Positions 1-57,612 of a stretch of 64,000 bases of DNA are shown here, piece by piece. Positions within the stretch are counted from its first letter, which is position 1, and each line of letters opens with the position of its first letter. The translations under genes were made by a program, and so were the position numbers. Origin of the DNA: Squalus acanthias (lineage: Eukaryota); contig CM059432.1 in NCBI GenBank assembly GCA_030390025.1, forward strand, positions 5,208,001-5,272,000. The letters are read 5' to 3'. The notes under the pieces were generated by a model. The model made no database searches and was not told the origin of the DNA. It saw nothing but the letters and a program-made list of their open reading frames with translations.

Positions 1-3000
1 TCTCTCTCTCCCCGCGATCTCTCCCTCCGCGATCTCTCTCTCCCCGCGATCTCTCTCCCCCAGCGATCTCTCTCTCCCCGCGATCTCTCCCTCCCCACGA
101 TCTCTCTCTCCGCGATCTCTCTCTCCTCGCGATCTCTCTCTCCCCGCGATCTCTCCCTCCCCACGATCTCTCTCTCCGCGATCTCTCTCTCCCCGCGATC
201 TCTCTCTCCCCGCGATCTCTCCCTCCCCGCGATCTCTCTCTCCCCGCGATCTCTCTCTCCCCGTAATCTCTCCCTCCTCGCGATCTCTCTCTCCCCGCGA
301 TCTCTCTCTCCCCGCGATCTCTCTTCGGCGATCTCTCTCTCCCCGCGATCTCTCTCTCCTCGCGATCTCTCTCTCCCCGCGATCTCTCCCTCCCCACGAT
401 CTCTCTCTCCGCGATCTCTCCCTCCCCGCGATCTCTCTCTCCCCGCGATCTCTCACTCCCCGCGATCTCTCTCTCCCCGCGATCTCTCTCTCCCCGTAAT
501 CTCTCCCTCCCCGCGATCTCTCTCTCCCCGCGATCTCTCACTCCCCGCGATCTCTCTCTCCCCGCGATCTCTCTCTCCCCGTAATCTCTCCCTCCTCGCG
601 ATCTCTCTCTCCCCGCGATCTCTCTCTCCCCGCGATCTCTCTCTCCGCGATCTCTCTCTCCCCACGATCTCTCTCTCCGCGCGATCTCTCCCTCCCCGCG
701 ATCTCTCTCTCCCCGCGATCTCTCCCTACCCACGATCTCTCTCTCCGCGATCTCTCTCTCCTCGCGATCTCTCTCTCCCCACGATCTCTCCCTCCCCACG
801 ATCTCTCTCTCCGCGATCTCTCTCTCCCCGCGATCTCTTTCTCCCCGCGATCTCTCCCTCCCCGCGATCTCTCTCTCCCCGCGATCTCTCTCTCCCCGTA
901 ATCTCTCCCTCCTCGCGATCTCTCTCTCCCCGCGATCTCTCTCTCCCCGCGATCTCTCCCCCCGCGATCTCTCTCTCCCCGCGATCTCTCCCTCCCCACG
1001 ATCTCTCTCTCCGCGATCTCTCTCTCCTCGCGATCTCTCTCTCCCCGCGATCTCTCCCTCCCCACGATCTCTCTCTCCGCGATCTCTCTCTCCCCGCGAT
1101 CTCTCTCTCCCCGCGATCTCTCTCTCCCCGCGATCTCTCTCTCCCCGTAATCTCTCCCTCCTCGCGATCTCTCTCTCCCCGCGATCTCTCTCTCCCCGCG
1201 ATCTCTCTTCGGCGATCTCTCTCTCCCCGCGATCTCTCTCTCCTCGCGATCTCTCTCTCCCCGCGATCTCTCCCTCCCCACGATCTCTCTCTCCGCGATC
1301 TCTCCCTCCCCGCGATCTCTCTCTCCCCGCGATCTCTCACTCCCCGCGATCTCTCTCTCCCCGCGATCTCTCTCTCCCCGTAATCTCTCCCTCCTCGCGA
1401 TCTCTCTCCCCGCGATCTCTCTCTCCCCGCGATCTCTCTCTCCGCGATCTCTCTCTCCCCGCGATCTCTCTCTCCCCGCGATCTCTCTCTCCCCGCGATC
1501 TCTCCCTCCCCACGATCTCTCTCTCCGCGATCTCTCTCTCCTCGCGATCTCTCTCTCCCCGCGATCTCTCCCTCCCCACGATCTCTCTCTCCGCGATCTC
1601 TCTCTCCCCGCGATCTCTCTCTCCCCGCGATCTCTCCCTCCCCGCGATCTCTCTCTCCCCGCGATCTCTCTCTCCCCGTAATCTCTCCATCCTCGCGATC
1701 TCTCTCTCCCCGCGATCTCTCTCTCCCCGCGATCTCTCTTCGGCGATCTCTCTCTCCCCGCGATCTCTCTCTCCTCGCGATCTCTCTCTCCCCGCGATCT
1801 CTCCCTCCCCATGATCTCTCTCTCCGCTATCTCTCTCTCCCCGCGATCTCTCTCTCTCCCCGCGATCTCTCTCTCCCCGTAATCTCTCCCTCCTCGCGAT
1901 CTCTCTCTCCCCGCGATCTCTCTCTCCCCGCGATCTCTCCCCCCGCGATCTCTCTCTCCCCGCGATCTCTCCCTCCCCACGATCTCTCTCTCCGCGATCT
2001 CTCTCTCCTCGCGATCTCTCTCTCCCCGCGATCTCTCCCTCCCCACGATCTCTCTCTCCGCGATCTCTCTCTCCCCGCGATCTCTCTCTCCCCGCGATCT
2101 CTCTCCCCGCGATCTCTCTCTCCCCGTAATCTCTCCCTCCTCGCGATCTCTCTCTCCCCGCGATCTCTCTCTCCCCGCGATCTCTCTTCGGCGATCTCTC
2201 TCTCCCCGCGATCTCTCTCTCCTCGCGATCTCTCTCTCCCCGCGATCTCTCCCTCCCCACGATCTCTCTCTCCGCGATCTCTCCCTCCCCGCGATCTCTC
2301 TCTCCCCGCGATCTCTCACTCCCCGCGATCTCTCTCTCCCCGCGATCTCTCTCTCCCCGTAATCTCTCCCTCCTCGCGATCTCTCTCCCCGCGATCTCTC
2401 TCTCCCCGCGATCTCTCTCTCCGCGATCTCTCTCTCCCCGCGATCTCTCTCTCCCCGCGATCTCTCTCTCCCCGCGATCTCTCCCTCCCCACGATCTCTC
2501 TCTCCGCGATCTCTCTCTCCTCGCGATCTCTCTCTCCCCGCGATCTCTCCCTCCCCACGATCTCTCTCTCCGCGATCTCTCTCTCCCCGCGATCTCTCTC
2601 TCCCCGCGATCTCTCCCTCCCCGCGATCTCTCTCTCCCCGCGATCTCTCTCTCCCCGTAATCTCTCCATCCTCGCGATCTCTCTCTCCCCGCGATCTCTC
2701 TCTCCCCGCGATCTCTCTTCGGCGATCTCTCTCTCCCCGCGATCTCTCTCTCCTCGCGATCTCTCTCTCCCCGCGATCTCTCCCTCCCCATGATCTCTCT
2801 CTCCGCTATCTCTCTCTCCCCGCGATCTCTCTCTCTCCCCGCGATCTCTCTCTCCCCGCGATCTCTCTCTCCCCGCGATCTCTCTCTCCCCGCGATTTCT
2901 CCCACTCCACGATCTCTCTCTCCGCGATCTCTCTATCCGCGATCTCTCTCTCCGCGATCTCTCTCTCCTCGCGATCTCTCTCTCCCCGTGATCTCTCTCT

Positions 3001-6000
3001 CCCCGCGATCTCTCTCTCCTGGCGATCTCTCTCTCCCCGCGATCTCTCCCTCCCCGCGATCTCTCTCTCCCCGCGATCTCTCCCTCCCCGCGATCTCTCT
3101 CTCTCCCCGCGATCTCTCTCTCCCCGCGATCTCTCCCACCCCACGATCTCTCTCTCCGCGATCTCTCTCTCCGCGATCTCTCTCTCCGCGATCTCTCTCT
3201 CCTCGCGATCTCTCTCTCCCCGCAATCTCTCTCTCCCCGTGATCTCTCTCTCCTGGCGATCTCTCTCTCCCCGCGATCTCTCTCTCCTCGCGATCTCTCT
3301 CTCCCCGCGATCTCTCCCTCACCGCGATCTCTCCCTCCTCGCGATCTCCCCCTCACCGCGATCTCTCCCTCCTCGCGATCTCTCTCTCCCCGCGATCTCC
3401 CTGTCCTCGTGATCTCTCTCTCCCCACGATCTCTCTCTCCCCGCGATCTCCCTGTCCTCGTGATCTCTCCCTCCTCGCGATCTCTCTCTCCCCACGATCT
3501 CCCTGTCCTTGTGATCTCTCTCTCCCCGCGATCTCTCTCTCCCCGCGATCTCTCTCTCCCCGCGATCTCTCTCTCCTCGCGATCTCTCTCTCCTCACGAT
3601 CTCCCTGTCCTCGTGATCTCTCTCTCCCCGCGATCTCTCTCTCTCCTCGCGATCTCTCTCTCCCCGCGATCTCTCTTTCCCCACGATCTCTCTCTCCCCG
3701 CGATCACTCTCTCCTCGTGATCTCCCTGTCCTCGTGATCTCTCTCTCCCCGCGATCTCTCTCTCCCCGCGATCTCTCTCTCCCCGCGATCTCTCTCTCCC
3801 TGCGATCTCTCTCTCCTCGTGATCTCTCTCTCCCCACGATCTCCCTGTCCTCGTGATCTCTCTCTCCCCACGATCTCTCTCTCCTCGCGATCTCTCTCTC
3901 CCCGCGATCTCTCTCTCCTCGCGATCTCTCTCTCCCCGCGATCTCTCTCTCCTCGCGATCTCTCTCTCCCCGCAATCTCTCTCTCCCCGCGATCTCTCTA
4001 TCGCCGTGATCTCTCTCTCCCCGCGATCTCTCTCTTCCCGCGATCTCTCTCTCCCCGCAATCTCTCTCTGGCCGTGATCTCTCTCTCCCCACGATCTGTC
4101 TCTCTCATCGCGATCTCTCTCCCCCGAGATCTCACTCTCCTCGCGATCTCTCTCTCCTCGCGATCTCTCTCCCCCGCGATCTCTCTCTCCCTGCGATCTC
4201 TCTCTCTCCCTGCGATCTCTCTCTCCTCGCGATCTCTCTCTCCGCGATCTCTCTCTCCGCGATCTCTCTCTCCCTGCGATCTCTCTCTCTCCCTGCGATC
4301 TCTCTCTCCTCGTGATCTCTCTCTCCGCGATCTCTCTCTCCCCGCGATCTCTCTCTCTCCCCGCAATCTCTCTCTCCCCGCGATCTCTCTCTCCCCGCGA
4401 TTTCTCTCTCCCCGCGATCTCTCCCTCCCCATGATCTCTCTCTCCGCGATCTCTCTCTCCGCGATCTCTCTCTCCCCGTGAACTCTCCCTCCCCGCGATC
4501 TCTCTCTCTCCCCGTGATCTCTCTCTCCCCGCGATCTCTCCCACCCCACGATCCCTCTCTCCGCGATCTCTCTCTCCGCGATCTCTCTCTCCGCGATCTC
4601 TCTCTCCTCGCGATCTCTCTCTCCCCGTGATCTCTCTCTCCCCGCGATCTCTCTCTCCTGGCGATCTCTCTCTCCCCGCGATCTCTCCCTCCCCGCGATC
4701 TCTCTCTCCCCGCGATCTCTCCCTCCCCGCGATCTCTCTCTCTCCCCGTGATCTCTCTCTCCCCGCAATCTCTCCCACCCCACGATCTCTCTCTCCGCGA
4801 TCTCTCTCTCCGCGATCTCTCTCTCCGCGATCTCTCTCTCCTCGCGATCTCTCTCTCCCCGCGATCTCTCTCTCCCCGTGATCTCTCTCTCCTGGCGATC
4901 ACTCTCTCCCCGCGATCTCTCTCTCCTCGCGATCTCTCTCTCCCCGCGATCTCTCCCTCACCGCGATCTCTCCCTCCTCGCGATCTCTCTCTCCCCGCGA
5001 TCTCCCTGTCCTCGTGATCTCTCTCTCCCCACGATCTCTCTCTCCCCGCGATCTCCCTGTCCTCGTGATCTCTCCCTCCTCGCGATCTCTCTCTCCCCAC
5101 GATCTCCCTGTCCTTGTGATCTCTCTCTCCCCGCGATCTCTCTCTCCCCGCGATCTCTCTCTCCCCGCGATCTCTCTCTCCTCGCGATCTCTCTCTCCTC
5201 ACGATCTCCCTGTCCTCGTGATCTCTCTCTCCCCGCAATCTCTCTCTCTCCCCACGATCTCCCTGTCCTTGTGATCTCTCTCTCCCCGCGATCTCTCTTT
5301 CCCCACGATCTCTCTCTCCCCGCGATCACTCTCTCCTCGCGATCTCCCTGTCCTCGTGATCTCTCCCTCCTCGCGATCTATCTCTCCACGCGATCTCCCT
5401 GTCTTCGTGATCTCTCTCTCCCTGCGATCTCTCTCTCCCCGCGATCTCTCTCTCCCCGCGATCTCTCTCTCCCTGCGATCTCTCTCTCCTCGTGATCTCT
5501 CTCTCCCCACGATCTCCCTGTCCTCGTGATCTCTCTCTCCCCGCGATCTCTCTCTCCCCGCGATCTCTCTCTCACCGCGATCTCTCTCTCCTCGTGATCT
5601 CTCTCTCCCCACGATCTCCCTGTCCTCGTGACCTGTCTCTCCCCGCGATCTCTCTCTCCCCGCGATCTCTCTCTCACCGCGATCTCTCTCTCCTCGCGAT
5701 CTCTCTCTCCCCGCGATCTCTCTCTCCTCGCGATCTCTCTCTCCCCGCGATCTCTCTCTCCTCGCGATCTCTCTCTCCCCGCGATCTCTCTATCGCCGTG
5801 ATCTCTCTCTCCCCGCGATCTCTCTCTTCCCGCGATCTCTCTCTCCCCGCAATCTCTCTCTCGCCGTGATCTCTCTCTCCCCGCGATCTGTCTCTCTCAT
5901 CGCGATCTCTCTCCCCCGCGATCTCACTCTCCTCACGATCTCTCTCTCCCCGTGACTCTCTCCCCCCGTGATCTCTCTCTCCCTGCGATCTCTCTCTCCT

Positions 6001-8510
6001 CGTGATCTCTCTCTCCCCGTGATCTCTCTCCCCGCGATCTCACTCTCCCCGCGATCTCTCTCTCCCCGCGATCTCTCTCCCCCCGTGATCTCTCTCTCCC
6101 CGCGATTTATTCCTCCTCACGATCTCTCTCTCCCCGCGATCTCACTCTCCCCGCGATCTCTCTCACCCCGTGATCTCTCTCTCCCCGCGATTTCTTCCTC
6201 CTCACGATCTCTCTCTCCTGGCGATCTCTCTCTCCGCGCGATCTCTTTCTCCCCGTGATCTCTCTCCCCGCGATCTCTCTCTCCCCGCGATCTCTCTCTC
6301 CCCGTGATCTCCCTCCTCGCAATCTCCCCTCCCCGTGATCTCCCTCCTCGCGATCTCTCTCTCCCCGTGTTCTCTCTCCCCGCGATCTCTCTCTCCCTCC
6401 CCGCGATCTCTCTCTCCCCGCGATCTCTCTCTCCCCGCGATCTCTCTCTCCGCGCGATCTCTCTCTTCCCGTGATCTCTCTCCCCGCGGTCTCTCTCTCC
6501 CCGCGATCTCTCTCTCCCCGTGATCTCTCTCCCCGCGATCTCTCTCTCTCATCGCGATCTCTCTCTCCACGCAATCTCTCTCTCCCCGCGATCTCTCCCT
6601 CCACGCGATCTCTCTCTCCCCGCGATCTCTCTCTCTCCCCGCGATCTCTCTCTCTCCGCGATCTCTCTCTCCTGGCGATCTCTCTCTCCTCGCGATCTCT
6701 CTCTCCCGGCGATCTCTCCCTCCTCGCGATCTCTCTCTCTCCGCGATCTCTCTCTCCCCCCGATCTCCATCTCCCCGCGATCTCTCTCCCCGCGATCTCT
6801 CTCTCCCCGCGATCTCTCTCTCCCCGTGATCTCTCTCTCCCCGTGATCTCTCTCCCCGCGATCTCTCTCTCTCATCGCGATCTCTCTCTCCACGCAATCT
6901 CTCTCTCCCGGCGATCTCTCCCTCCTCGCGATCTCTCTCTCTCCGCGATCTCTCTCTCCCCGCGATCTCTCCCTCCACGCGATCTCTCTCTCCCCGCGAT
7001 CTCTCTCTCTCCCCGCGATCTCTCTCTCTCCGCGATCTCTCTCTCCTGGCGATCTCTCTCTCCTCGCGATCTCTCTCTCCCGGCGATCTCTCCCTCCTCG
7101 CGATCTCTCTCTCTCCGCGATCTCTCTCTCCCCCCGATCTCCATCTCCCCGCGATCTCTCTCCCCGCGATCTCTCTCTCCCCGCGATCTCTCCCTCCTCG
7201 CAATCTCCCCCTCCCCGTGATCTCCCTCCTCGCGATCTCTCTCTCCCCGTGTTCTCTCTCCCCGCGATCTCTCTCTCCCTCCCCGCGATCTCTCTCTCCC
7301 CGCGATCTCTCTCTCCTCGCAATCTCTCTCTCCCCGCGATCTCTCTCTCCCTCGCGATCTCTCTCTCCTCGCAATCTCTCTCTCCCCGCGATCTCTCTCT
7401 CCCTCGCGATCTCTCTCTCCTGGCGATCTCTCTCTCCCCGCGATCTCTCTCTCACCGCGATCTCTCTCTCCTCGCGATCTCTCTCTCCCCGCGATCTCTC
7501 TCTCCCTCACGATCTCTCTCCCCCAGCGATCTCTCTCTCCCCGCGATCTCTCTCTCCCTCGCGATCTCTCTCTCCCCGCGATCTCTCTCTCCTCGCGATC
7601 TCTCTCTCCCCGCGATCTCTCTCTCCCTCGTGATCTCTCTCTCCCCGCAATCTCTCTCTCCCCGCGATCTCTCTCTCCTCGCAATCTCTCTCTCCCCGCG
7701 ATCTCTCTCTCCCTCGCGATCTCTCTCTCCTCGCAATCTCTCTCTCCCCGCGATCTCGCTCTCCCTCGCGATCTCTCTCTCCTGGCGATCTCTCTCTCCC
7801 CGCGATCTCTCTCTCCTCGCGATCTCTCTCTCCCCGCGATCTCTTTCTCCCTCGCGATCTCTCTCTCCCCGCGATCTCTCTCCCCGCGATCTCTCTCTCC
7901 CTCGCGATCTCTCTCTCCCCGCGATCTCTCTCTCCTCGCGATCTCTCTCTCCCCGCGATCTGTCTCTCCCTCGCGATCTCTCTCTCCCCGCGATCTCTCT
8001 CTCCCCGCGATCTCTCTCTCCCGGCGATCTCTCCCTCCTCGCGATCTCTCTCTCTCCGCGATCTCTCTCTCCCCGCGATCTCTCTCTCCTCGCAATCTCT
8101 CTCTCCCCGCGATCTCCATCTCCCCGCGATCTCTCTCCCCGCGATCTCTCTCTCCCCGCGCTCTCTCTCTCTCCCCGCGATCTCTCTCTCCCCGCGATCT
8201 CTCTCTCCTCGCAATCTCTCTCTCCCCGCGATCTCTCTCTCCCTCGCGATCTCTCTCTCCTCGCAATCTCTCTCTCCCCGCGATCTCTCTCTCCCTCGCG
8301 ATCTCTCTCTCCTGGCGATCTCTCTCTCCCCGCGATCTCTCTCTCCCTGCGATCTCTCTCTCCTCGCGATCTCTCTCTCCCCGCGATCTCTCTCTCCCTC
8401 GCGATCTCTGTCTCCCCGCGATCTCTCTCTCCCCGCGATCTCTCTCTCCCTCGCGATCTCTCTCTCCCCGCGATCTCTCTCTCCCCGCGATCTCTCTCTC
8501 CCCGCGATCT
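1..8510. repeat. 17-bp satellite array, consensus GATCTCTCTCTCCCCGC, with higher-order duplications; continues beyond the left edge
   Basis: Continuous tandem units of about 13-19 bp, nearly all with GATC; strong pyrimidine/purine strand asymmetry; variant units recur at fixed offsets (e.g. 1811 and 2790, 979 bp apart). Confidence 0.97.
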
Positions 8511-8831
8511 TCAGGCTACCCCCACCCCCCACCCCATCCCTGGCGGTCTCACCCTCCTTATCCGCAGCCGAGCTCCGAGCCCCCCCCCCCCCCCGCCACC
8601 GCCCACCACCAACCCCTGACCTTCCCCAACGGCCCCCGCTGCAGCCGTCTACCGCAGGCTTTCCCACCCGGCAGCTGATCAGCCTCTCAATCTGTCAATG
8701 GTGTCAAAAAAATTCCACTGAGGTCCTGCTGCTAAATTCGGCAAGACCCCCGCATTCCCGGCATTTATGGGTTTCCCGCCTGCAAACAGGCCCCCCCCCC
8801 GCCCAGCTCCCTCCCCATAAATATCCGGGCC
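8511..8831. mobile_element. End of a non-autonomous Harbinger-like DNA element joined to the satellite
   Basis: GC-rich segment ending AAATATCCGGGCC, resembling the ends of other MITEs in this window. Confidence 0.45.
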
Positions 8832-9830
8832 ATAGAATCGTACAACACAGAAGGAGGCCATTCGGCCCATTGTGCCTGTGCCGGCTCTTTGGTAGAGCGA
8901 TCCAATTAGTCCCACTCTTCCCCCTGCTCTTTCCCCATAGCCCTGCAAATTTTTTTCCTTTTCAAGTATTTTTCTGATTCCCTTTTGAAAGTTATTATTG
9001 AATCTGCTTCCACCGCCCTTTCAGGCAGTGCGTTCCAGATAATAAGAACATAAGAATTAGGAGCAGCAGTCGGCCATTCGGCCCCTCGAGCCTGCTCCGC
9101 CATTCAATAAGATCATGGCCGATCTTCGAGCTCAACTCCACTTTCCTGCCCGATCTCCATATCCCTTGATTCCCTTAATATCCAAAAATCTATCCATCTC
9201 AGCCTTGAATATAATCAACGACTGAGCCTCCACAGCCCTCTGGAGCAGAGAATTCCAAAGATTCACCACCCTCTGAGTGAAGAAATTCCTCCTCATCTCA
9301 GTCCTAAATGGCCGACCCCTTATCCTGAGACTATGACCCCTGGTTCTAGACTCCCCAGCCAGGGGAAACATCCTCCCTGCATCGACCCTGTGAAGCCCTG
9401 TAAGAATTTTGTATGTTTCAATGAGATCACCTCTCATTCTTCTAAACTCTGGAGAATATAGGCCTAGACTACTCAATCTCTCCTCATAGGACAATCCCCC
9501 CGATCCCAGGAACCAGTCTGGTGAATCTTCGTTGCACTCGCTCTATGGCAAGTATATCCTTCCTTAGGTAAGGAGACCAAAACTGTACACAATACTCCAG
9601 GTGTGGTCTCACCAAGGTCCTATATAATTGCAGTAAGACGTCTTTACTCTTATACTCAAATCCTTTTGTAATAAGGGCCAACATAATATTTGCTTTCCTA
9701 ATTGCTTGCTGTACCTGCATGTGAACTTTCAGTGATTGGTGTACAAGGACACCCAGGTCCCTCTGAACACCAACATTTCCCAATCTCTCACCATTTAAAA
9801 AATACTCTGCTTTTCTATTTTTCCTACCAA
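8832..9830 (-). mobile_element. Two 5'-truncated CR1 LINE 3' ends
   Basis: ORFs 9132..9494 and 9484..9954 contain the CR1 ORF2 C-terminus ([26 protein letters not shown]); tail repeats present. Confidence 0.9.
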
Positions 9831-42095: not shown

Positions 42096-43519
42096 GTCTT
42101 GCATTTATATAACATCTTTCACCACCTCCGGACGTCCCAAAGCGCTTTACAGCCAATGAAGTACTTTTTGAAGTGGAGTCACTGTTGTAATGCCGGAATA
42201 TAAGGAATAGAGGTATATCAGATAGGGCAATGGAAAAGGTTAAATATGTAATAGCACTTTAAACTAAATTACTAAAGTAGGACAGGAGGACACAGTTTTA
42301 AGCTAATTAAAGTCAATTGCGGTCTGGTGTCAGGAAGTTCTACTCCACACAGAGTGATCACTGTATGGAGTAGATTCCGAGGAACGGTGTTGGAGGTGAA
42401 AACCCTGGAATCAGTTCATAAATAATTGGATGTTGAATGGCGGGACTCCAGGATCTCTCTGGATGGCTGTGTTAGGATGGGCCATGTGTAACTATCGTCT
42501 GACCGTGTGATATCCATATTTTTAGAGACCAATCCATAATTTGCACGGTGCTGGCAGGAGAATACATTGGCTATGGCATGAGGTCAATAATTCGGCCCCA
42601 CACAACACCACCACCTGTGGAGGAACGAGCTGGGGTGCATCCCTCCTGATGTTCTAGGAGCAAGGGTGAAGGGCTGGGGCCCCAACCTCAGGTGCCAGCA
42701 GTCAGTCAGGGGCTGCTGAGTGCCCATAGTGCGCTGGCAAAGGTACTCCAGCACAGGGGGGGTGAAGAGCAACGGTGGCACAAGGGTAGGTTGGCAGACA
42801 TTCTATCAGGGCTTTAATGACCCATCTGCCAAACCTTCAGCTGTCGAAACCCTCAGCTCTGGGATTCCCTCCCTAAACCTCTCCGCCTCGCTACCTCTCT
42901 CTCCTCCTTTAAGACTGCTCCTTAAAACCTACCTCTTTGACCAAGCTTTCGGTCACCTGTCCTAATGTCTTCTTGTGTGGCTCGGGTTGGATTTTGTCTG
43001 ATTACGCTTCCGTGAAACGCCTTGGAGCATTTTACAACATTAAAGGCGCTGTGTAAATTGCACAAGCTCCAAGTGCCCTTAGCCACATTGAAAAATGCTG
43101 GGTATCTTCAGCACATCCGGGTATACTTGGAAGCGAACCCTACGCTTGCCCAACGGGGTCACCAAAAAGCAGCGGATGAACGATGAATAAGAGGTGATCA
43201 AGGATGATTACAGGAGATGATCACAGGAGGAGGAATCAGTTGGCGAGATGCAGCGATTGCGTTGGGGAAGGGACGAGAGCGGAACCACATGAGAACAGCG
43301 CTGCATAGATAACCCGTGAAAGAGAAGTGTGCGGCAGAACGGTCAATCTTGTTGAAGGCCTCAGGTGACGGAGAAGGAACAGTGAGCCGCAAAATCCCGT
43401 GGATACAATAAAAGTAATACTTCGATTAGTCTTATGAAACATGGAAACGAACATTTACAATTGAATATACCATTAAGATCAACAACATCCATAAAAATAG
43501 AAATCTCAATTAATAAAGT

Positions 43520-46360: not shown

Positions 46361-49300
46361 ATAAGAAGGGGGGGAAGAGCAGAATAGAAATGTGGTAGTG
46401 ATAGGGGACTCTATAATTAGGGGGATAGATAGCGTCTTCTGCAGCCAAGAAAGAGAATCCCGAAGGGTGTGTTGCCTACCCAGTGCCAGGGTAAGGGATA
46501 TCTCACGGTTGCTGGAGAGGAATCTGGAAAGGGAGGGGGTAAATCCAGTTGTTGTGGCCCATGTTGGAACAAACGACATAGGTAGGAACAGGGAGGAGGT
46601 CTTGCTGAAAGAGTATCAGGAGTTTGGATCTAAATTCAAAAGCAGGACCTCGAGGGTAATAATCTCTGGATTATTGCCTGAGCCACGTGCAAATTGGTAT
46701 AGAAGCAGACAGATCAGGAGAATTAACACGTGGCTAAAGGGCTGGTGTGGGAAAGAGGGGTTCCTTTTTAATGGGACACTGGCACTAGTACTGGGACAGA
46801 AAGGAGCTGTACCGATGGGATGGGCTCCACCTGAACCGGGATGGGACCCGTGTCCCAGCGGAAAGGGTAAATAGGGGGGTGGCAAAGGCTTTAAACTAGT
46901 AAGATTGCGGGGGGGGGGGTGGGGGGGGGGGTGGGGGGGAGAGAGAGAGAGGGATCTACAAGAAACATAACCAGCCTACATATAAACAAAACAGGAAAAG
47001 AGAGCATAGGAAAGAATAAAGTAAGGGAGAACATTGATGGCAAGGGAATAAATAGAGTTATAGAATAGGAGTCTAAAAAGATGGTTAAACATAAAGTGAG
47101 AGGAACTGCTATTAAAAATGAGTTAAACTGTCTGTACAGCAATGCACACAGTGTCCGTAATAAAACAGGGGAGCTGGAGGCAATCATATGTTGCGAGGAA
47201 CCAGACATAGTAGGGATTACTGAGACATGGCTACAGAAAAATCAGGACTGTGAATTAAACATTGCAGGGTATAACATATTTAGAAAAGATAGGGAGGGAA
47301 AAAGGGGAGGTGGAGTAGCTGTACTTATTAGGGATAACATAATGGCAGTAGAAAAAAGTGACACAGATATCAGCAAGACAAAAATAGAATCCATATGGAT
47401 AGAGATAAAAGATAATAAACGATCAATCACACTAATAGGCGTAGTCTACAGACCACCTAATAGTGGAAGGGAGGTGGAGGAAGAAATATGCAGACAAATT
47501 AGGGAAATGAGTAAAAAACATAGAATAATAATCATGGGGGATTTCAACTACCCCGATATTAATTGGACAGAAGAGGTAGGTAAAGGGGATAAGGGAATGG
47601 AATTCCTACAATGTGTACAGGACTCCTTTCTAACCCAATATGTAAAAAGCCCAACAAGGGAGGATTCGCTATTGGATCTAGTAATGGGGAATGAACCAGA
47701 GCAGATAAGAGAAGTAAAAGTAAGGGAACATATAGGCAGTAGTGACCATAATATAATACGCTTTAAGATGATAATTGAGAAGGACAGAAGTATGACGAAG
47801 ACCAGGGTAATAGATTGGAGAAAAGCTGATTTTGAGGGGCTGAGAATAGAACTTGGGGGGAAAAAATGGGCAACAATATTGGCAAAAAATGATGTAGAAC
47901 AGCAATGGGTGTAGGCTTCGCAAAATCCCCCAGAAACTTGAATAGAACCCTAAAGGGGGTGATTTTTGGATCTTAATACGAATTTGGAATGGTGGGACCG
48001 AAATGAAGGAATTTGAGGTCAAAACCTCAGTTTTGAAGTATATTTTGAAAAGGATCAAGGAAGAAATAAAGCCCTGAGGAAAATGACTTTGGATGATAAG
48101 ATACCTTTTTAAAAGGGCCATTGGGTAAACCTGCAGTCACAGAAACACAGGCTGCGGGAAGGGGTGTGGTGAGGCAGTGGACAGCTTTTGGATATTGGGA
48201 CCAAGACAAGCTGTCTGGGAGATGTTTGCACTGCAATCCAACCAAGGAGGAAGAGCCTCATCCAAAACATCACAAACACATTCAAAGATGAATAAACCAA
48301 GACCGCTTTTGAAATCCCCAGGTCCAGACAGGATACTGGAAATCTGAAAACAATTCCTAACAAATAAAACTGCCAGTACACAGTTTCATAGCCCATCATC
48401 CCATCAAAAACCGATTAGCCAAGTATCGACAGGAACAGTTTAACGAGCCCGCCAAAACCTAAGACAAAAGAAGCGAGATTTGGCGCGTAGATAGAGGCCC
48501 TGTCTCAATGGAAGACATCGGTAGCCATCAGGACAAGTTAACACTAAGTTAAAGTCATCAGACTTAACGAGCCCGCCAAAACTTAAGACAAAACAAACGA
48601 GATTTGGTGTGAAGATAAACAGGCCTCAACTTAAACCTAATCACTTTAACGCAAAATCGATTAGGAAAGCAGTTTTGGCGCGAAAAACACAATAGACCTG
48701 AACAGTATAATTGGGGGCCTATTCCCCCAAGAAAAGCGAAGCAAGCGAAGAAAGAGAGCCACACAGGTTCGACACCAGAGCCAAGCAACAAGGAACGAGT
48801 CACAAGAAGAACCTTCGGAAGGCAGGCAGGCCTAAAGCCACGGGCAAGAAGACACGAGGAATCCGAGAGACACTGTGGTGGTGTCTGTTCGAGCCGTGCG
48901 GTTTGTTACAACACTATACTTAAAGTTAGTTCAAGGCTGTCCAGAGAGGCAGTTTCAAGTTAGTAACAGTACCGAGGCACGCAAGGACAACACGCCACAG
49001 TAAGGGGGGGTCATCGACGGACCCGACTGGGAAAAAGGTTCCCAACGCCTCGCAGCAACCAAGGCCCCACGAACCAACCAACACAACGCCACCGACCAAC
49101 CAGATGCGAACCAGGCCGTCGCGACCACCGAAAGACCAACACCAGGGAAAACCGAAGACACACAAGTTTCCACGCTACAAACTATTCCTGACTTACCCCT
49201 GGGTAAGATTTTGCCTTAAAAAACTCTAAACCCTACCTCTAACGAAGAAAATTGGGTACTCACCTGATACAATCCAATACGCACCTTACCGCATCAGCGG

Positions 49301-51482: not shown

Positions 51483-53072
51483 TAAATAGTGGGGGGGAGG
51501 GTTCAGGTGAGCAGAAATTTAAAAAGTCAAAGAGAAAGGAGAAGGCAATAGTGCAGGGTAGCGATAGGGGTAATGATAACCAGAGTATGACAGGAAGGGA
51601 CAGAGCGTCTAAACATAAGAGTGCATCAGAAAGTGAGGTCAGAGTAGGGAAAAATGGTAAAAAGACAAAATTAATAGCTCTTTAACTGAATGCACGCAGC
51701 ATTCGTAACAAGATAAATGAGTTGTCGGCACAAATAGAAGTAAATGGGTATGATCTGATAGCCATTACAGAGATGTGGTTGCAAGGTGACCAAGGCTGGG
51801 AATTTGACATTTCGGAAGGATAGGCAGAAAGGAAAAGGAGGTGGGGTAGCTCTGTTAATAAAGGATGAGATCAGTGCAGTAGTGAGAAATGATATTGGCT
51901 AAGAAGATCAAGATGTAGAATCAGTTTTGGTGGAGATAAGAAATAATAAGGGAAAAAAGTCACTGGTGGGAGTAGTCTCTAATCCCCCTAACAGTGGCTA
52001 CACTGTAGGACAGAGCTAAAATCAACAAATAATGGAGGCTTTTAAGAAAGGTACTGCAATAATCATGGGCGATTTTAATCTTCATATTGATTGGACAAAT
52101 CAAATTGGCAAGGGTAGCCTTGAGGAAGAGTTCTTACAGTGTATTCAGGATGGTTTCTTAGAACAATATGTTGTGGAACCAATCAGGGAGCAGGCTACCT
52201 TAGATCTGGTAATGTGTAATGAGACAGGATTAATTAATGATCTCATAGTAAAGGATCCTCTAGGGAAGAGTGATCATAGCATGATAGAATTTCAAATTCA
52301 GTTTGAGGGTGAGAAAGTTGAGTCTCAAACCAGTGTCCTGAACTTGAATAAAGGCAATTGCAAAGGTATGAAGGCAGAGTTGGCTAAAGTTGACTGGGAA
52401 AATAGATTAAAGGGTAAGACAGTTGATAAGCAGTGGCAGACATTTAAGCAGATATTTCAAAACTCTCAGCAAAGATATATTCCAGTGAGAAGGAAAGACT
52501 CTAAGAGAAGGATGAACCATCCGTGGCTAACTAAGGAAGTAAAGGATGGTATCAAATTGAAAACAAAGGCATACATTTTGCGAAGATTAGTGGTAGGCCA
52601 GGGGATTGGGAATTTTTAGAAACCAGCAAAGGATGACTAAAAAAAAATAAAGAGAGAGAAGATAGATTATGACAGTAAACTAGCAAGAAATATAAAAACA
52701 GACAGTAAGAGCTTGTACAGGTATATAAAAAGGAAGAGAGTAGCTAAAGTAAACATTGGTCCCTTGGAGGATGAGACGAGGGAATTAATAATAGGAAATA
52801 GGGAAATGGCAGAGACTTTGAACAAATTGAGGTGGAGGACTCAAGAGGCGGCGGCGACCAGGTAGGCCCACAGAGGCTTTTAAAGTGCGGGACGCAGTGG
52901 TTGCTGGGTAGGTGATTAATTTTTACCTGTATATAAGTTGGGCGGTTCCTAAACCCGAGACACTACACTTGTAGTGTCCCCCAACCTTCCTCCTCCTCTA
53001 ACCTAAAGGAGGTGAGTGACTATCAGGTAAGCTTTTTTTGTTCTAGTTTAATCTGCAAGTTAGCTGGAGGGG

Positions 53073-53984
53073 ATGGCAGGGGAGGCAGTGAAATGTTCCT
53101 CCTGCAGAATGTTTGAGGTGAGGGACGCCGTAGGTGTCCCTGCTGATTACACCTGTGGGAAGTGCACCCATCTCCAGCTCCTCGAAAACCGTGTTAGGGA
53201 ACTGGAGCTGGAGCTGGATGAACTTCGGATCATTCGGGAGGCAGAGGAGGTCATAGATAGAAGCTTCAGAGATGTAATTACTCCAAAGCATGAAGATAGA
53301 TGGGTGACGGTGAGAGGGGCTAGGAGGAAGCAGTCAGTGCAGGGATCCTCTGTGGTCGTTCCCCTCAGTAACAGGTATACCGCTTTGAATACTGTTGAGG
53401 GGGACGACTTACCAGTGGTAAGCCACGGTGACCGGATCTCCGGCGCTGGGTCCGTACCTGTGGCTCAGAAGGGAAGGGGGGAGAGCAGGAGAGCAATAGT
53501 TATTGGGGACTCAATAGTCAGAGGGACAGATAGGAGGTTCTGTGGCAGCAAAAGAGACTCACGGATGGTATGTTGCCTCCCGGGTGCCAGGGACCGTGTT
53601 TTCAGAATCCTCAAAGGGGAAGGGGAACAATCACAAGTCGTGGTACACATCGGTACCAACGACATAGGTAGGAGAAGGGACGGGGATTTAAAACAGGAAT
53701 TTAGGGAGCTAGGTTGGAAGCTGAGAGCCAGTACAAACCATGTTGTAATTTCTGGTTTGTTGCCGGTGCCACGTGCTAGCGAGTTGAGGAACAGGGAGAG
53801 AGTGCAGATAAACACGTGGCTGCAGGGATGGTGTAGGGGGGAGGGTTTCAGTTATGTGGATAATTGGAGCACATTCTGGGGAAGGTGGGACCTGTACAAA
53901 CAGGACGGTTTGCACCTGAACCAGAGGGGCACCAATATCCTGGGAGGGAAATTTGCTACGGCTCTTCGGGGGGGTTTAAACTAA
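53073..53984 (+). CDS. CR1 ORF1p: CxxC-CxxC zinc finger, leucine zipper, SGNH esterase
   Basis: CSSC...CGKC, LENRVRELELELDEL, VIGDSIVRG, HIGTND, DGLHLN. Confidence 0.92.
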   Translation: MAGEAVKCSSCRMFEVRDAVGVPADYTCGKCTHLQLLENRVRELELELDELRIIREAEEVIDRSFRDVITPKHEDRWVTVRGARRKQSVQGSSVVVPLSNRYTALNTVEGDDLPVVSHGDRISGAGSVPVAQKGRGESRRAIVIGDSIVRGTDRRFCGSKRDSRMVCCLPGARDRVFRILKGEGEQSQVVVHIGTNDIGRRRDGDLKQEFRELGWKLRASTNHVVISGLLPVPRASELRNRERVQINTWLQGWCRGEGFSYVDNWSTFWGRWDLYKQDGLHLNQRGTNILGGKFATALRGGLN

Positions 53985-56881
53985 TTTGTCAGGGGGATGG
54001 GAAAAAGGGCTGTAGTCCACGAGCCAGTGGTGAGTGTAGGGAGGTACTGAGGAGGGTATCAAGGTCGCAGGAATGTACCGGCAGACAGGAAGATGGCTTG
54101 AAGTGTGTCTACTTCAATGCAAGGAGCATCCGGAATAAGGTAGGAGAACTTGGAGCGTGGATTGGTACTTGGGACTACGATGTGGTGGCCATTACGGAGA
54201 CATGGTTAGAACAGGGACAGGAATGGTTGTTGGAAGTTCCGGGGTATAGATGTTTCAGTAAGAGTAGGGAAGTTGGTAAGAAAGGTGGAGGAGTAGCATT
54301 GTTAATCAAGGATAGTTTAACAGCGGCAGAAAGGCAGTTCGAGGGGGATCTGCCGTCTGAGGTAATATGGGCTGAAGTTAGAAATAGGAAAGGAGCGGTC
54401 ACGTTGTTAGGAGTTTTCTACAGGCCCCCAAATAGTAATAAAGATGTGGAGGAAGAAATTGCAAAGCAGATTATGAATAGGTGTGGAGGTCACAGAATAG
54501 TTGTCATGGGTGACTTCAACTTTCCAAATATTGATTGGAACCTTTATAGGTCAAACAGTTCGGATGGGATAGTTTTTGCACAGTGTGTGCAGGAGGGTTT
54601 CCTGACACAATATGTGGATAGGCCGACAAGAGGTGGGGCCACGTTGGATTTGGTACTGGGTAATGAACCGGGCCAAGTGTTTGATTTGTATGTGGGAGAG
54701 CACTTTGGAGATAGTGACCACAATTCGGTAACTTTCACTATTGCAATGGAGAGGGATAGGGCCATACGGCAGGGCAGGGTTTATAATTGGGGGAGGGGTA
54801 ATTATGATGCGATTAGGCAAGAATTAGGGAGTATAAGATGGGAACAGAAACTATCAGGGAAAGGCACAAACGAAAAGTGGAGCTTTTTCATGGAGCAATT
54901 ACTGCGTGTCCTTGATAGGTATGTCCCTGTCAGGCAGGGAGGAAATGGCCGAGTGAGAGAACCATGGTTCACAAAAGAGGTTGAATGTCTAGTCAAGAGG
55001 AAAAAGGAAGCGTATGTAAGGATGAGAAAACAAGGTTCAGTTGGGTCGATTGAGGGGTACAAGGTAGCAAGGAATGAGCTAAAAAAAGAGCTTAGGAGAG
55101 CTAGGAGGGGACATGAGAAGTCCTTGGCGGGTCGGATCAAGAAAAACCCCAAGGCTTTTTACTCTTATGTGAGAAATAAAAGAATGACCAGGGTGAGGGT
55201 AGGGCCGGTCAAGGACAGTAGTGGGAACTTGTGCATGGAGTCAGAAGAGATAGGAGAGGTGATGAATGAATACTTTTTGTCAGTGTTCACCGAGGAGAGG
55301 GGCCATGTTCTTGAGGATGAGAGTGTGATAAAGGTGGATAGGCTGGAGGTGGTAGATGTTCTGAGGGAAGATGTTTTAGTAATTTTGAAGAACCTGAGGG
55401 TCGATAAGTCCCCTGGGCCAGATGGGATATATCCTAGGATTCTTTGGGAGGCAAGGGAGGAGATTGCAGAGCCTCTGGCTTTGATCTTTGGGTCCTCACT
55501 GTCCACGGGGATGGTGCCAGAGGACTGGAGAGTGGCGAATGTTGTTCCTCTCTTCAAGAAAGGAAATAGGAATGACCCTGGTAATTATAGGCCGGTTAGT
55601 CTTACTTCGGTGGTTGGTAAGATAATGGAAAAGGTCCTGAGGGATAGGATTTATGACCATTTGGAAAGGGGCAACTTAATCAGGGATAGTCAACACGGAT
55701 TCGTGAAGGGTAAGTCTTGCCTAACAAATTTGATTGAATTCTTTGAGGAGGTAACTAAGTGTGTAGATGAAGGTAGAGCAGTTGATGTCGTATACATGGA
55801 TTTTAGTAAGGCGTTTGATAAGGTTCCCCATGGTCGTCTCATGAAGAAAGTAAGGAGTTGTGGGATAGAGGGAAATTTGGCCGATTGGATAAGTAACTGG
55901 CTATCTCATAGAAGGCAGAGGGTGGTGGTGGATGGAACATTTTCGGACTGGAGACCAGTTACCAGCGGTGTGCCACAGGGGTCGGTGCTGGGTCCTCTGC
56001 TGTTTGTGATTTTTATCAATGACTTGGAGGAGGGGACTGAAGGGTGGATCAGTAAATTTGCTGATGACACCAAGATTGGTGGAGCAGTGGATGAGGTGGA
56101 GGGCAGTTGTAGGCTGCAAAGAGACATTGATAGGATGCAGAGCTGGGCCGAAAAATGGCAGATGGAATTTAACCCTGATAAGTGCGAGGTGATTCATTTT
56201 GGTAGGGCAAATTTGAATAAGGATTACAGGGTCAACGGCAGGGTTCTGAGGAACGTGGAGGAGCAGAGGGATCTGGGGGTTCATATCCACAGATCTCTGA
56301 AGGTTGCCACTCAAGTGGATAGAGCAGTAAAGAAGGCCTATGGTGTGTTGGCGTTTATTAACAGAGGGTTTGAGTTTAAGAACCGTGAGGTTATGCTGCA
56401 ACTGTACAGGACCTTGGTGAGACCACATTTGGAATATTGTGTGCAGTTCTGGTCACCTCACTATAGGAAGGACGTGGAAGCATTGGAAAGAGTGCAAAGG
56501 AGATTTACCAGGATGCTGCCTGGTTTGGGGGGGAGGTCTTATGAGGAAAGATTGAGGGAGTTGGGGCTTTTCTCTTTAGAGCGGAGGAGGATGAGAGGCG
56601 ACTTAATAGAGGTTTATAAGATGATGAGGGGGATAGATAGAGTGGATGTTCAGAGACTATTTCCTCGGGTAGAGGCAGCTGTTACAAGGGGGCATAACTA
56701 TAAGGTGCATGGGGGGAGATATAGAAGGGATGTCCGAGGTAGATTCTTTACTCAGAGAGTGGTTGGGGTGTGGAATGGACTGCCTGCTGTGATAGTGGAG
56801 TCGGACACTTTAGGAACTTTCAAGCGGTTATTGGATAAGCACATGGAGCACACCAGAGTGATAGGGAGTGTGATAGCTTGA
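53975..56881 (+). CDS. CR1 ORF2p: APE endonuclease and reverse transcriptase, uninterrupted; in the -1 frame relative to ORF1
   Basis: Frame open from 53864; NARS, ITETW, GDFN, SDH; YMDFSKAFD, PQGS, FADD; first in-frame ATG only at 54473. Confidence 0.93.
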   Translation, partial: FKLICQGDGKKGCSPRASGECREVLRRVSRSQECTGRQEDGLKCVYFNARSIRNKVGELGAWIGTWDYDVVAITETWLEQGQEWLLEVPGYRCFSKSREVGKKGGGVALLIKDSLTAAERQFEGDLPSEVIWAEVRNRKGAVTLLGVFYRPPNSNKDVEEEIAKQIMNRCGGHRIVVMGDFNFPNIDWNLYRSNSSDGIVFAQCVQEGFLTQYVDRPTRGGATLDLVLGNEPGQVFDLYVGEHFGDSDHNSVTFTIAMERDRAIRQGRVYNWGRGNYDAIRQELGSIRWEQKLSGKGTNEKWSFFMEQLLRVLDRYVPVRQGGNGRVREPWFTKEVECLVKRKKEAYVRMRKQGSVGSIEGYKVARNELKKELRRARRGHEKSLAGRIKKNPKAFYSYVRNKRMTRVRVGPVKDSSGNLCMESEEIGEVMNEYFLSVFTEERGHVLEDESVIKVDRLEVVDVLREDVLVILKNLRVDKSPGPDGIYPRILWEAREEIAEPLALIFGSSLSTGMVPEDWRVANVVPLFKKGNRNDPGNYRPVSLTSVVGKIMEKVLRDRIYDHLERGNLIRDSQHGFVKGKSCLTNLIEFFEEVTKCVDEGRAVDVVYMDFSKAFDKVPHGRLMKKVRSCGIEGNLADWISNWLSHRRQRVVVDGTFSDWRPVTSGVPQGSVLGPLLFVIFINDLEEGTEGWISKFADDTKIGGAVDEVEGSCRLQRDIDRMQSWAEKWQMEFNPDKCEVIHFGRANLNKDYRVNGRVLRNVEEQRDLGVHIHRSLKVATQVDRAVKKAYGVLAFINRGFEFKNREVMLQLYRTLVRPHLEYCVQFWSPHYRKDVEALERVQRRFTRMLPGLGGRSYEERLRELGLFSLERRRMRGDLIEVYKMMRGIDRVDVQRLFPRVEAAVTRGHNYKVHGGRYRRDVRGRFFTQRVVGVWNGLPAVIVESDTLGTFKRLLDKHMEHTRVIGSVIA

Positions 56882-57612
56882 TCTTGGTCTCGGACAATGC
56901 TCGGCACAACATCGAGGGCCGAAGGGCCTGTACTGTGCTGTACTCTTCTATGTTCTATAAATATTTTGTATCGGTCTTCACGATAGAAGACACTAAAAGC
57001 ATCCCAATAATGGATAATCAAGGGGCTATTGGGAGGGGGGAACTTAAAACAATCAGCATCACTGGAGAAAAAGTACTCAGTAAAATAATGGGACTAAAGG
57101 TGGACAAGTCCCCTGGACCTGATGGCCTGCATCCTAAGGTCTTAAAAGAAGTGGCTGCAGAGATAGTGGATACATTGGTTGCAATCTACCAAAATTCCCT
57201 GGATTCTGGAGAGGTCCCAGCGGATTGGAAAACCGCAAATGTGACGCCCCTATTTAAGAAAGGAGGGAGACAGAAAGCAGGAAACTATAGACCAGTTAGC
57301 CTGTCATTGGGAAAATACTGGTGTCCATTATTAAGGAAGTAATAGCAGGACATTTAGAAAATCATAATACAGTCAAGCAGAGTCAGCAAGGTTTTATGAA
57401 AGGGAAATCATGTTTGACAAATTTGCTGGAGTTCTTTGAGGATGTAATGAGCAGGGTGGACAAAGGTGAACCAGTAGATGTGGTGTATTTGGATTTCCAG
57501 AAGGCATTCGATAAGGTGTCACATAAAAAGGTTACTGTACAAGATAAGAGCTCACGAGGTTGGGGGTAATATATTAGCATGGATAGAGGATTGGCTAACT
57601 AACAGAAAACAG

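Follow-up and report, generated by a model that had tools for sequence, protein, structure and literature searches.

The ORF2 protein of a shark CR1 LINE is likely to arise through -1 programmed ribosomal frameshifting at a conserved U_UUA_AAC heptamer, a route that would give an ORF1-ORF2 fusion. We reach this reading by comparing the ORF1/ORF2 junction of a young CR1 copy in the window (the whole stretch of Squalus acanthias DNA that was analysed, 64,000 nt) with those of its relatives. The features concerned are these:

52829..56958, + strand: CR1 LINE, full-length young copy (family A), sitting within an older CR1 ORF2
53073..53984, + strand: ORF1, 303 aa, with a zinc-finger-like N-terminus, a coiled-coil-like stretch and an SGNH esterase
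53864-56881, + strand: ORF2 frame, -1 relative to ORF1, stop codon at 56879-56881
53972..53978, + strand: second heptamer G_GGT_TTA, overlapping the next and phased X_XXY_YYZ, found in only 5/10 shark families
53975..53981, + strand: slippery heptamer T_TTA_AAC (U_UUA_AAC), the final two ORF1 codons, phased X_XXY_YYZ
53982..53984, + strand: ORF1 stop TAA, abutting the heptamer (read from the sequence)
53981..54109, + strand: -1 frame linker from slip site to endonuclease, with no AUG and no stop (by frame reading)
53992..54001, + strand: G-tract GGGGG-AT-GGG, candidate 3' stimulator, starting 10 nt past the heptamer
54110..54721, + strand: APE-type endonuclease domain of ORF2 (PF03372, 1.3e-21)
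55562..56281, + strand: reverse transcriptase domain of ORF2 (RVT_1, 4.2e-37)
56882..56958, + strand: 3' UTR, short, with TTCTATGTTCTAT repeats at its end
46890..46899, + strand: junction T_TTA_AAC_TAG of family D, a second and diverged CR1 family, in a decayed copy; an expanded G-tract comes next

The element and its junction

The 5' limit of the family A copy (52829) was set by BLAST against sister copies; its 3' tail was recognised by eye, as was a probable target duplication, AAAT, of 4 nt. The 3' end is an 8-mer-like TTCTATGTTCTAT repeat with no poly(A) and no LTR, which we take to be the CR1-type tail motif. Assignment to the CR1 type (esterase ORF1, type IVB) is based on the APE endonuclease and reverse transcriptase (RT), the zinc finger/zipper/SGNH ORF1 and this tail. 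The zinc finger-zipper-esterase-endonuclease-RT layout proposed in the first-pass annotation was borne out, the last three by domain match (for the esterase, Lipase_GDSL_2 at 1.9e-12 and the ORF1 esterase of PDB 4C1B at 1.5e-42) and the finger (CxxC..CxxC) and zipper (coiled-coil-like heptads) by eye. Family A shares an esterase ORF1 with the ZfL2-1 ORF1p (PDB 4C1B), and its zinc finger/leucine zipper plus SGNH esterase is like the type IVB ORF1 that PMC4120745 describes for the CR1_7 subgroup. Tetrapod proteins are among the relatives of its ORF1. A Pfam domain search found no protease or integrase domain in the element. The window's copy has a 15-nt in-frame deletion in ORF1 at 53590; over 53800-54300 of family A, 40/40 scored copies are 100% identical.

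In the ORF1 frame, 53970-53984 reads GGG GGT TTA AAC TAA, confirming the claim that ORF1 ends in two phased heptamers. As had also been claimed, a -1 slip enters an intact ORF2: from 53975 the -1 frame reads FKLICQG and runs 968 codons without a stop. The earliest in-frame ATG of ORF2 lies at 54473, deep inside the endonuclease as stated; given that the Pfam match begins at ORF residue 83 (54110), a start there would drop the first 121 codons of the domain. The chance of an in-phase canonical heptamer at one fixed position is 0.15%, and there are 8 of them among the 1,265 codon positions of the family A element, so that a lone heptamer is weak evidence and the weight rests on conservation. A further match to the motif in the window, at 42258 (TTTAAACTA), was rejected because it is not at an ORF1 end.

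Conservation of the heptamer, phase and leader

Genome-wide, 14,056 ORF1 ends were anchored; 9,028 carry the exact TTTAAACTAR and 9,936 carry any YTN-AAY-TRR 51-57 nt past the anchor, and a control with reversed patterns found 0. Heptamer, phase and stop are conserved in 10 shark families, in a bird-like CR1 and in another vertebrate CR1, although these families are related and the counts hence not independent. In the shark families the modal codons are TTA (10/10) and AAC (10/10), and the preceding codon always ends in T (10/10), though its amino acid is Gly, Ala or Asp. As a synonymous control, three further invariant Leu columns were taken; these use 6, 4 and 4 codons, and mean between-family codon identity at shared residues is 0.56. 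As these synonymous controls vary where TTA and AAC stay fixed, the codon comparison shows a constraint acting at the nucleotide level, beyond coding need. The modal ORF1 stop after the heptamer is TAA for 7 shark families and TAG for 3, and one further locus (L095) has TGA. Of the two heptamers noticed at first pass, U_UUA_AAC is the conserved one; G_GGU_UUA, present in 5/10 families, was rejected as a general slip site. Family D, whose junction lies in the same window, shares only 32-44% (ORF1) and 46% (ORF2) identity with family A.

Further afield, a search with the ORF1 alignment gave no match in metagenome and viral contigs, and a scan for the CCLPGA pattern returned 40 loci from metagenomes, 24 from genomes and 1 from viruses, mostly chance or incomplete. 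Six CCLPGA loci reach the junction: in L121, L091 and L095 heptamer and stop are exact, while L115, L093 and L099 are decayed variants. The sequence of L130 stops just past TTTAAACTG. At the protein level, 52/91 ORF1 homologues have LN as their exact ending, among them named proteins of shark, ray, frog, eel and tortoise, and two stingray gene models read GFKL through into the endonuclease. From a more distant set of the best 150 representatives, 93 had a full C-terminus; 61/93 are Asn-terminal and 32/93 are not. Of these 61, 58 end in LN (48), GN (9) or KN (1), with Q preceding GN in 8/9 and an NNU-codable residue preceding LN in 47/48. These dipeptides, L-N, G-N and K-N, correspond to three top slippery heptamers, GN and KN being known at the protein level only. 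The proteins P0067, P0044 and P0138 had no match in the shark genome at strict E cut-offs, and P0056 returned family A again.

The leader between heptamer and endonuclease varies in length and keeps its phase. Modal distances are 135, 201, 150, 207, 150, 174, 165, 261 and 192 nt in nine shark families, 111 nt in L121 and 183 nt in L095; all modal lengths (111-261 nt) are multiples of 3. Out of phase are decayed single copies (L099, L115, L247, L258) and the four copies of the old family J. The -1 frame of the leader has no stop in 10/11 families or representatives, the other frames having 2-13, and the whole -1 ORF from the heptamer extends over 999 codons in family B and 982 in family C. Just upstream of the heptamer, the -1 frame is closed within 1-5 codons in 8/11 families or representatives, which means that entry into ORF2 has to occur at the junction or beyond it. 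The family A leader lacks Met in 51/51 loci. The modal leader does have a Met before the endonuclease in 9/11 families or representatives, and in family C a UAAUG overlaps the ORF1 stop (ATG there in 7/8 copies); AUG routes thus exist in some families. The position of the leader Met is not conserved, ranging from 4 to 75, and upstream of it the leader is still open, for which the combined chance would be about 1e-10 if families were independent.

Candidate downstream signal and alternative routes to ORF2

The G-tract proposed as a stimulator is conserved: a G5-7 run begins 8-10 nt after the heptamer in 12/12 representatives, a G4+ run starts there in 145/169 exact-motif loci, and family A has runs at 53992-96, 53999-54001 and 54007-09. 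It gives no predicted stable structure in family A. No stable local stem was found across the 12 representatives (z from -0.85 to +0.89), nor any stem-loop or pseudoknot with a strong stem 1 at 5-9 nt downstream (ViennaRNA, which did not model pseudoknots), and folding predicts a two-tier G-quadruplex for just 3/12, family A not among them. An Rfam search gave 3 sub-threshold matches and no conserved structure. A duplex search found no conserved long-range complement of the post-slip sequence, and the 3' tails of family A and of single C and H copies share no helix of the BYDV 3'-end pairing type. According to a passage of PMC3919603, a G-quadruplex 5-8 nt past UUUAAAC can stimulate -1 shifting to as much as about 7%. 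The 8-10 nt spacer of CR1 equals or exceeds the upper end of the usual 5-8 nt.

The main rival is termination at the ORF1 stop and restart on the overlapping -1 codon (in UAAUG fashion, independent of an AUG as has been proposed for L1), yielding a separate ORF2p. We consider it unlikely, though it accounts for the fixed phase (equally expected under restart at the stop), the open leader and the -1 stops found upstream. Human L1 and silkworm SART1 are LINEs with, as in CR1, a bicistronic RNA and rare ORF2 synthesis; they differ in making a separate ORF2p by unconventional initiation in L1 (described in part of PMC5009743) or UAAUG stop-restart in SART1 (likewise, PMC3708506), and are precedents for restart. 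In CR1, UAAUG occurs in family C and a near-cognate AUU takes its place in family A, but the overlapping codon varies over the 169 loci (ATT 63, ACT 37, GTA 23, GCT 13, AAT 10, ATG 9, others 14), so that a conserved AUG of the SART1 type is absent (9/169, modal only in family C). Reinitiation also leaves unexplained the invariant heptamer and the switch among LN, GN and KN together with the preceding residue.

It is quite improbable that ORF2 has a separate message or internal start (through an internal promoter, through splicing to the CAG at 53990-92, or from a CUG/UUG or a leader AUG), the motif then being a DNA or RNA-processing signal. In-frame CUG (54047) and UUG (54098) codons do precede the endonuclease in family A, and the leader Met of most families favours an internal start, but those Met positions are not conserved and the leader is open ahead of them. 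For splicing, a CAG follows the stop in phase in families A, C, E, F, G and I, with donor-like ORF1 sites recognised by eye; against it, families B, D and K have this AG out of phase, and a pyrimidine tract is absent. Contigs of two runs that we presume, as a guess, to be RNA span the junction gap-free, though contigs drop rare forms, and 0/5 of their listed joints have GT..AG ends. We give as little credence to transcriptional or RT slippage on G/T runs that yields in-frame messages, or to the L-N-stop end and F-K-L start being kept for protein reasons only. Slippage would suit the G run before the heptamer, whose length differs from copy to copy in families A and E, and the in-frame read-through of some stingray models, but a homopolymer is absent there in families B, C, D, H and J and in the bird-like element. 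Selection on the protein cannot hold TTA and the T ahead of it constant when the -1 frame closes shortly before them, and the terminal LN is mostly missing from ZfL2-1-like esterase proteins with DGLHP.

A proposed retrovirus-like fusion in CR1

We thus favour frameshifting: as distant relatives keep the heptamer in place and phase, the RT is likely to come from a one-base backward slip. The tRNA-Leu and tRNA-Asn would each slip back one base (UUA to UUU, AAC to AAA), giving the transframe product ...ALRGGLN/LICQGDGK... and the predicted tryptic transframe peptide GGLNLICQGDGK. A predicted 1,269-residue fusion (about 145 kDa) would stand beside the main 303-residue ORF1 protein, their ratio being set in the manner of Gag:Gag-Pol. 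The adjacent stop codon and the G-tract together would cause the pause, the G-tract acting probably not as a Watson-Crick pseudoknot but by binding a protein or folding into a weak G-quadruplex. The support for the fusion already suggested at first pass is comparative: heptamer, phase, stop, open linker and G-tract are all kept.

The C-rich motif of arteriviruses has a spacing of about 10 nt, and the CR1 motif differs in being G-rich, which makes the comparison an analogy only. Arterivirus nsp1beta/PCBP stimulates frameshifting as a protein (passages of PMC5009743, also for the viral systems that follow); a short motif with no structure could likewise act in CR1. Coronaviruses (IBV/SARS) have the identical U_UUA_AAC at ORF1a/1b, in the same phase and with the polymerase ORF in -1; they have a 3' pseudoknot, whereas CR1 has no stable predicted stem, an immediate stop and the G-tract at 8-10 nt. 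Retroviral and LTR gag-pol (Rous sarcoma virus, HIV, L-A virus) fuses, as CR1 would, a structural ORF to RT at low frequency, and ribosomes that do not shift terminate quickly. CR1 differs in being non-LTR: it has an APE endonuclease, the domain search turned up neither a protease nor an integrase, and its fusion would therefore probably stay uncleaved. Dictyostelium TRE5-A and TRE3-A are APE-type non-LTR elements whose ORF2 requires a -1 frameshift (stated in part of PMC5911963); they belong to another clade and host, and CR1 has a defined heptamer conserved across vertebrates. A term search found no frameshift discussion in the main texts of PMC3905857 and PMC4120745. We found no description of CR1 frameshifting in the literature, though key work of 1997-2006 may already suggest one. 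A weak search for a natural multi-copy single-ORF CR1 fusion family found none, with 2 longer proteins matched.

More tentatively, and with slightly less than even confidence, we extend this reading to all vertebrate CR1, from sharks to birds, and to their QGN/SKN relatives. All may make a Gag-Pol-like fusion via a structure-free -1 cassette (heptamer, a stop directly after it, and a G-tract that either folds as a minimal quadruplex or is read by a trans-acting protein), kept for >400 million years with the heptamer switched between lineages (U_UUA_AAC, G_GGA_AAC, A_AAA_AAC). The many identical young copies make a retrotransposition assay feasible for family A.

LINE ORF2 translation is described as unclear in passages of PMC3708506, PMC5009743 and PMC1965478. 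The CR1 cassette is short and lacks a classical structure. If the frameshift reading is true, CR1, a dominant repeat in sharks, reptiles and birds, would set its ORF1p:RT ratio in a retrovirus-like way. A membrane-binding esterase would then be covalently tied to an endonuclease-RT, and CR1 ORF2 proteins whose annotation begins at the first Met would have the wrong N-terminus.

The CR1 element and its ORF1-ORF2 junction

The window holds a copy of the CR1 LINE that we call family A:

52829-56958, + strand: full-length young CR1-type LINE; the host site is an older CR1
53073-53984, + strand: ORF1, 303 aa, with an SGNH esterase (domain search; PDB 4C1B, 1.5e-42 with the family profile)

ORF2 encodes an APE endonuclease and a reverse transcriptase (domain search), and the closest named ORF1 relatives in the homologue search are from sharks and rays, which points to a shark as the probable host. 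All 40 copies scored, out of 1,266 candidates in the 3.7-Gb genome, are 100% identical across 501 junction bases. The esterase of the window copy has a 15-nt in-frame deletion at 53590 relative to sister copies. The 5' end (52829-52877) is a 49-nt unit, present as several tandem copies in sisters L001, L014-L016, L020, L021 and L028, which resemble monomeric 5' UTR promoters; by eye, the AUG-free 5' UTR (52855-53060) shows several sequences resembling splice donors (AG/GT), together with a pyrimidine tract that has an AG. The family A junctions at G000:C8:109813949, 109842880 and 109871777 are identical and lie at intervals of about 28.9 kb, probably through a tandem segmental duplication, and the strongly strand-skewed first 8-9 kb of the window (1-9000; GC skew about -0.63, AT skew about -0.62) are probably one long repeat, either simple or satellite.

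ORF1 does end in GGG GGT TTA AAC TAA, as the first-pass annotation had it, and ORF2 follows in the -1 frame (FKLICQG from 53975) with no stop for 968 codons; its first in-frame ATG (54473) lies 122 codons inside the endonuclease match. A lone heptamer (here U_UUA_AAC, 53975-53981) is weak evidence, because the element has 8 in-phase canonical heptamers in its 1,265 codon positions. Two family A copies (G000:C1:31039614 and C1:30412761) carry one or two extra Gs before the heptamer; with one, ORF1 would run directly into ORF2.

Conservation of heptamer, codons and phase

The same junction occurs at 46890 in a second, diverged CR1 family of the window (family D). Genome-wide, using an upstream anchor string without the motif, we counted 14,056 sites; 9,936 of them have, at the distance expected, a string that could encode Leu-Asn-stop, and 9,028 have exact TTTAAACTAR. 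The first 30 anchor matches, an unselected sample, include 18 exact motifs; most of the others differ by one or two bases or carry deletions. Since copies within one family are not independent, the family is the unit that counts. We sorted 199 junction-bearing loci into families (66 of the 265 fetched had no full ORF1 end and were dropped), and the endonuclease start could be located in 162. In this comparison, suggested from the window sequence, heptamer, phase and stop are kept across the shark families and in two further CR1s, L121 (a bird-like metagenome contig) and L095 (another vertebrate).

Any two of the ten shark families agree at 18-56 of the 61 C-terminal ORF1 residues. Their modal terminal codons are TTA and AAC in 10 of 10, and the preceding codon always ends in T, whichever of GGT, GCT or GAT it is; at three other positions with invariant Leu, 6, 4 and 4 codons are in use. 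The invariance of AAC by itself says little, because invariant Asp and His columns are likewise codon-invariant in sharks. Judged from these codon comparisons, the constraint on the ORF1 end is on nucleotides, not on protein. Of the two overlapping heptamers proposed initially, U_UUA_AAC proved general; G_GGU_UUA, present in only 5 of 10 shark families, was rejected as a general signal. A possible further family (L252, L258) ends in TTA AAG/AAT CAA TAA, with an extra codon and the last heptamer base altered, which seems to be variation or decay.

Nine shark families have modal heptamer-to-endonuclease distances of 135, 201, 150, 207, 150, 174, 165, 261 and 192 nt; L121 has 111 nt and L095 183 nt, and all 11 distances are multiples of three. 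This count excludes old family J, whose 4 copies are all out of phase and show no modal length, and the decayed, out-of-phase single copies L099, L115, L247 and L258. The -1 frame is free of stops in 10 of the 11 leaders, and the other frames have 2-13. In 8 of 11 a -1 stop lies 1-5 codons upstream of the heptamer, and ORF2 therefore cannot be entered from upstream. Family C (L218-L225) looks, from its sequence, like a recombinant: its ORF1 end and junction are like those of families F/G/I (45-47 of 61 residues), its endonuclease is 92% identical to that of family B (L061-L090), and the switch falls within the linker with phase retained. The post-stop G-tract of family D (window 46900-46945; L031-L060) has often grown into long G/GA microsatellites, disrupting phase in many dead copies.

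Outside this genome, 52 of 91 ORF1 homologues have the exact LN end, named frog, eel and tortoise proteins among them. The DNA motif is also present in L121, L091 and L095 (the last with a TGA stop), and two stingray gene models continue through ...GFKL... into the endonuclease, the same -1 geometry. In a profile search, 93 of the best 150 representatives are complete at the C-terminus, and 61 of these are Asn-terminal (48 LN, 9 GN, 1 KN, 3 others); the residue before LN can be NNU-coded in 47 of 48 (background about 0.78), and 8 of the 9 GN ends are QGN. These ends may be peptide shadows of U_UUA_AAC, G_GGA_AAC and A_AAA_AAC, a protein-level prediction for GN and KN; a section of a review ranks these heptamers among the four most shifty (PMC5009743). 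Most ZfL2-1-like proteins that carry DGLHP do not end in this way. CR1 ORF1 and ORF2 relatives under the bacterial names Pseudomonas aeruginosa and Carnobacterium maltaromaticum (P0006, P0233) are probably host contamination of those assemblies.

A candidate stimulator and the route to ORF2

The G-tracts pointed out after the heptamer recur: all 12 representatives have a G5-7 run that starts 8-10 nt past it. Of the 169 exact-motif loci, 145 have a G4+ run starting 8-10 nt downstream; outside family A, 104 of 119 have one that starts within 7-11 nt. The probability of a G5+ start in a given 3-nt coding-region window is about 0.01. Folding predicted no stable stem after the heptamer in any of the 12 representatives (z -0.85 to +0.89); only 3 are predicted to form a two-tier quadruplex. 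An Rfam search gave no match above threshold, and a search for pairing between the post-slip region and the element's 3' end, using tails of family A and of single C and H copies, found no shared helix. A quadruplex downstream of UUUAAAC is described as giving shifting of up to about 7% at 6-8 nt spacing (PMC3919603), and arterivirus frameshifting as stimulated by protein (PMC5009743). Given the kept G-tract, these precedents and the lack of stem, Rfam match or helix, we favour a pause that would come from the stop codon and a factor bound to the G-tract or a weak quadruplex, the least certain step.

Tandem -1 slippage at the heptamer would give ...ALRGGLN/LICQGDGK..., a predicted ORF1-ORF2 fusion of 1,269 aa and 145 kDa. 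The comparative evidence supports -1 frameshifting, as first suggested, and we consider this fusion the best explanation of ORF2 expression, and a quite probable one. Termination-reinitiation at the ORF1 stop would account for the phase as well, but leaves the heptamer unexplained, and the stop-overlapping codon is not conserved, which makes it an improbable route. UAAUG spans the stop in family C; nine of the 11 modal leaders contain Met codons, whose positions (4 to 75) bear no relation to one another, and the leaders of family A and L095 have none. Families with a leader AUG could use both frameshifting and reinitiation.

An internal start or splicing fits less well than -1 slippage, and we regard either as very unlikely. 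Contigs of two probable RNA runs cross the junction gap-free (53622-54164 and 53622-54955) and none of their five listed joints has GT..AG ends, which argues weakly against splicing. Equally slight is the chance that protein-only constraint or polymerase slippage lies behind the junction, again a poorer fit than -1 slippage.

As a class the mechanism is well known, and it has already been claimed for an amoebal LINE; a figure legend states that TRE5-A and TRE3-A need a -1 frameshift (PMC5911963). A section of PMC5009743 attributes LINE ORF2 to novel initiation, and its searched portion (300,000 of 449,034 characters) does not mention CR1. A literature search covering parts of PMC3708506, PMC3905857, PMC4120745, PMC1965478, PMC2951350, PMC4255032, PMC1925062 and PMC8310308, with the original CR1 papers outside it, found no report of CR1 frameshifting. 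A defined, vertebrate-wide, structure-free CR1 frameshift cassette appears to have been undescribed so far; this analysis tested three of its features, the bracket of upstream stops, the spacing of the G-tract and the covariation of LN, GN and KN ends.
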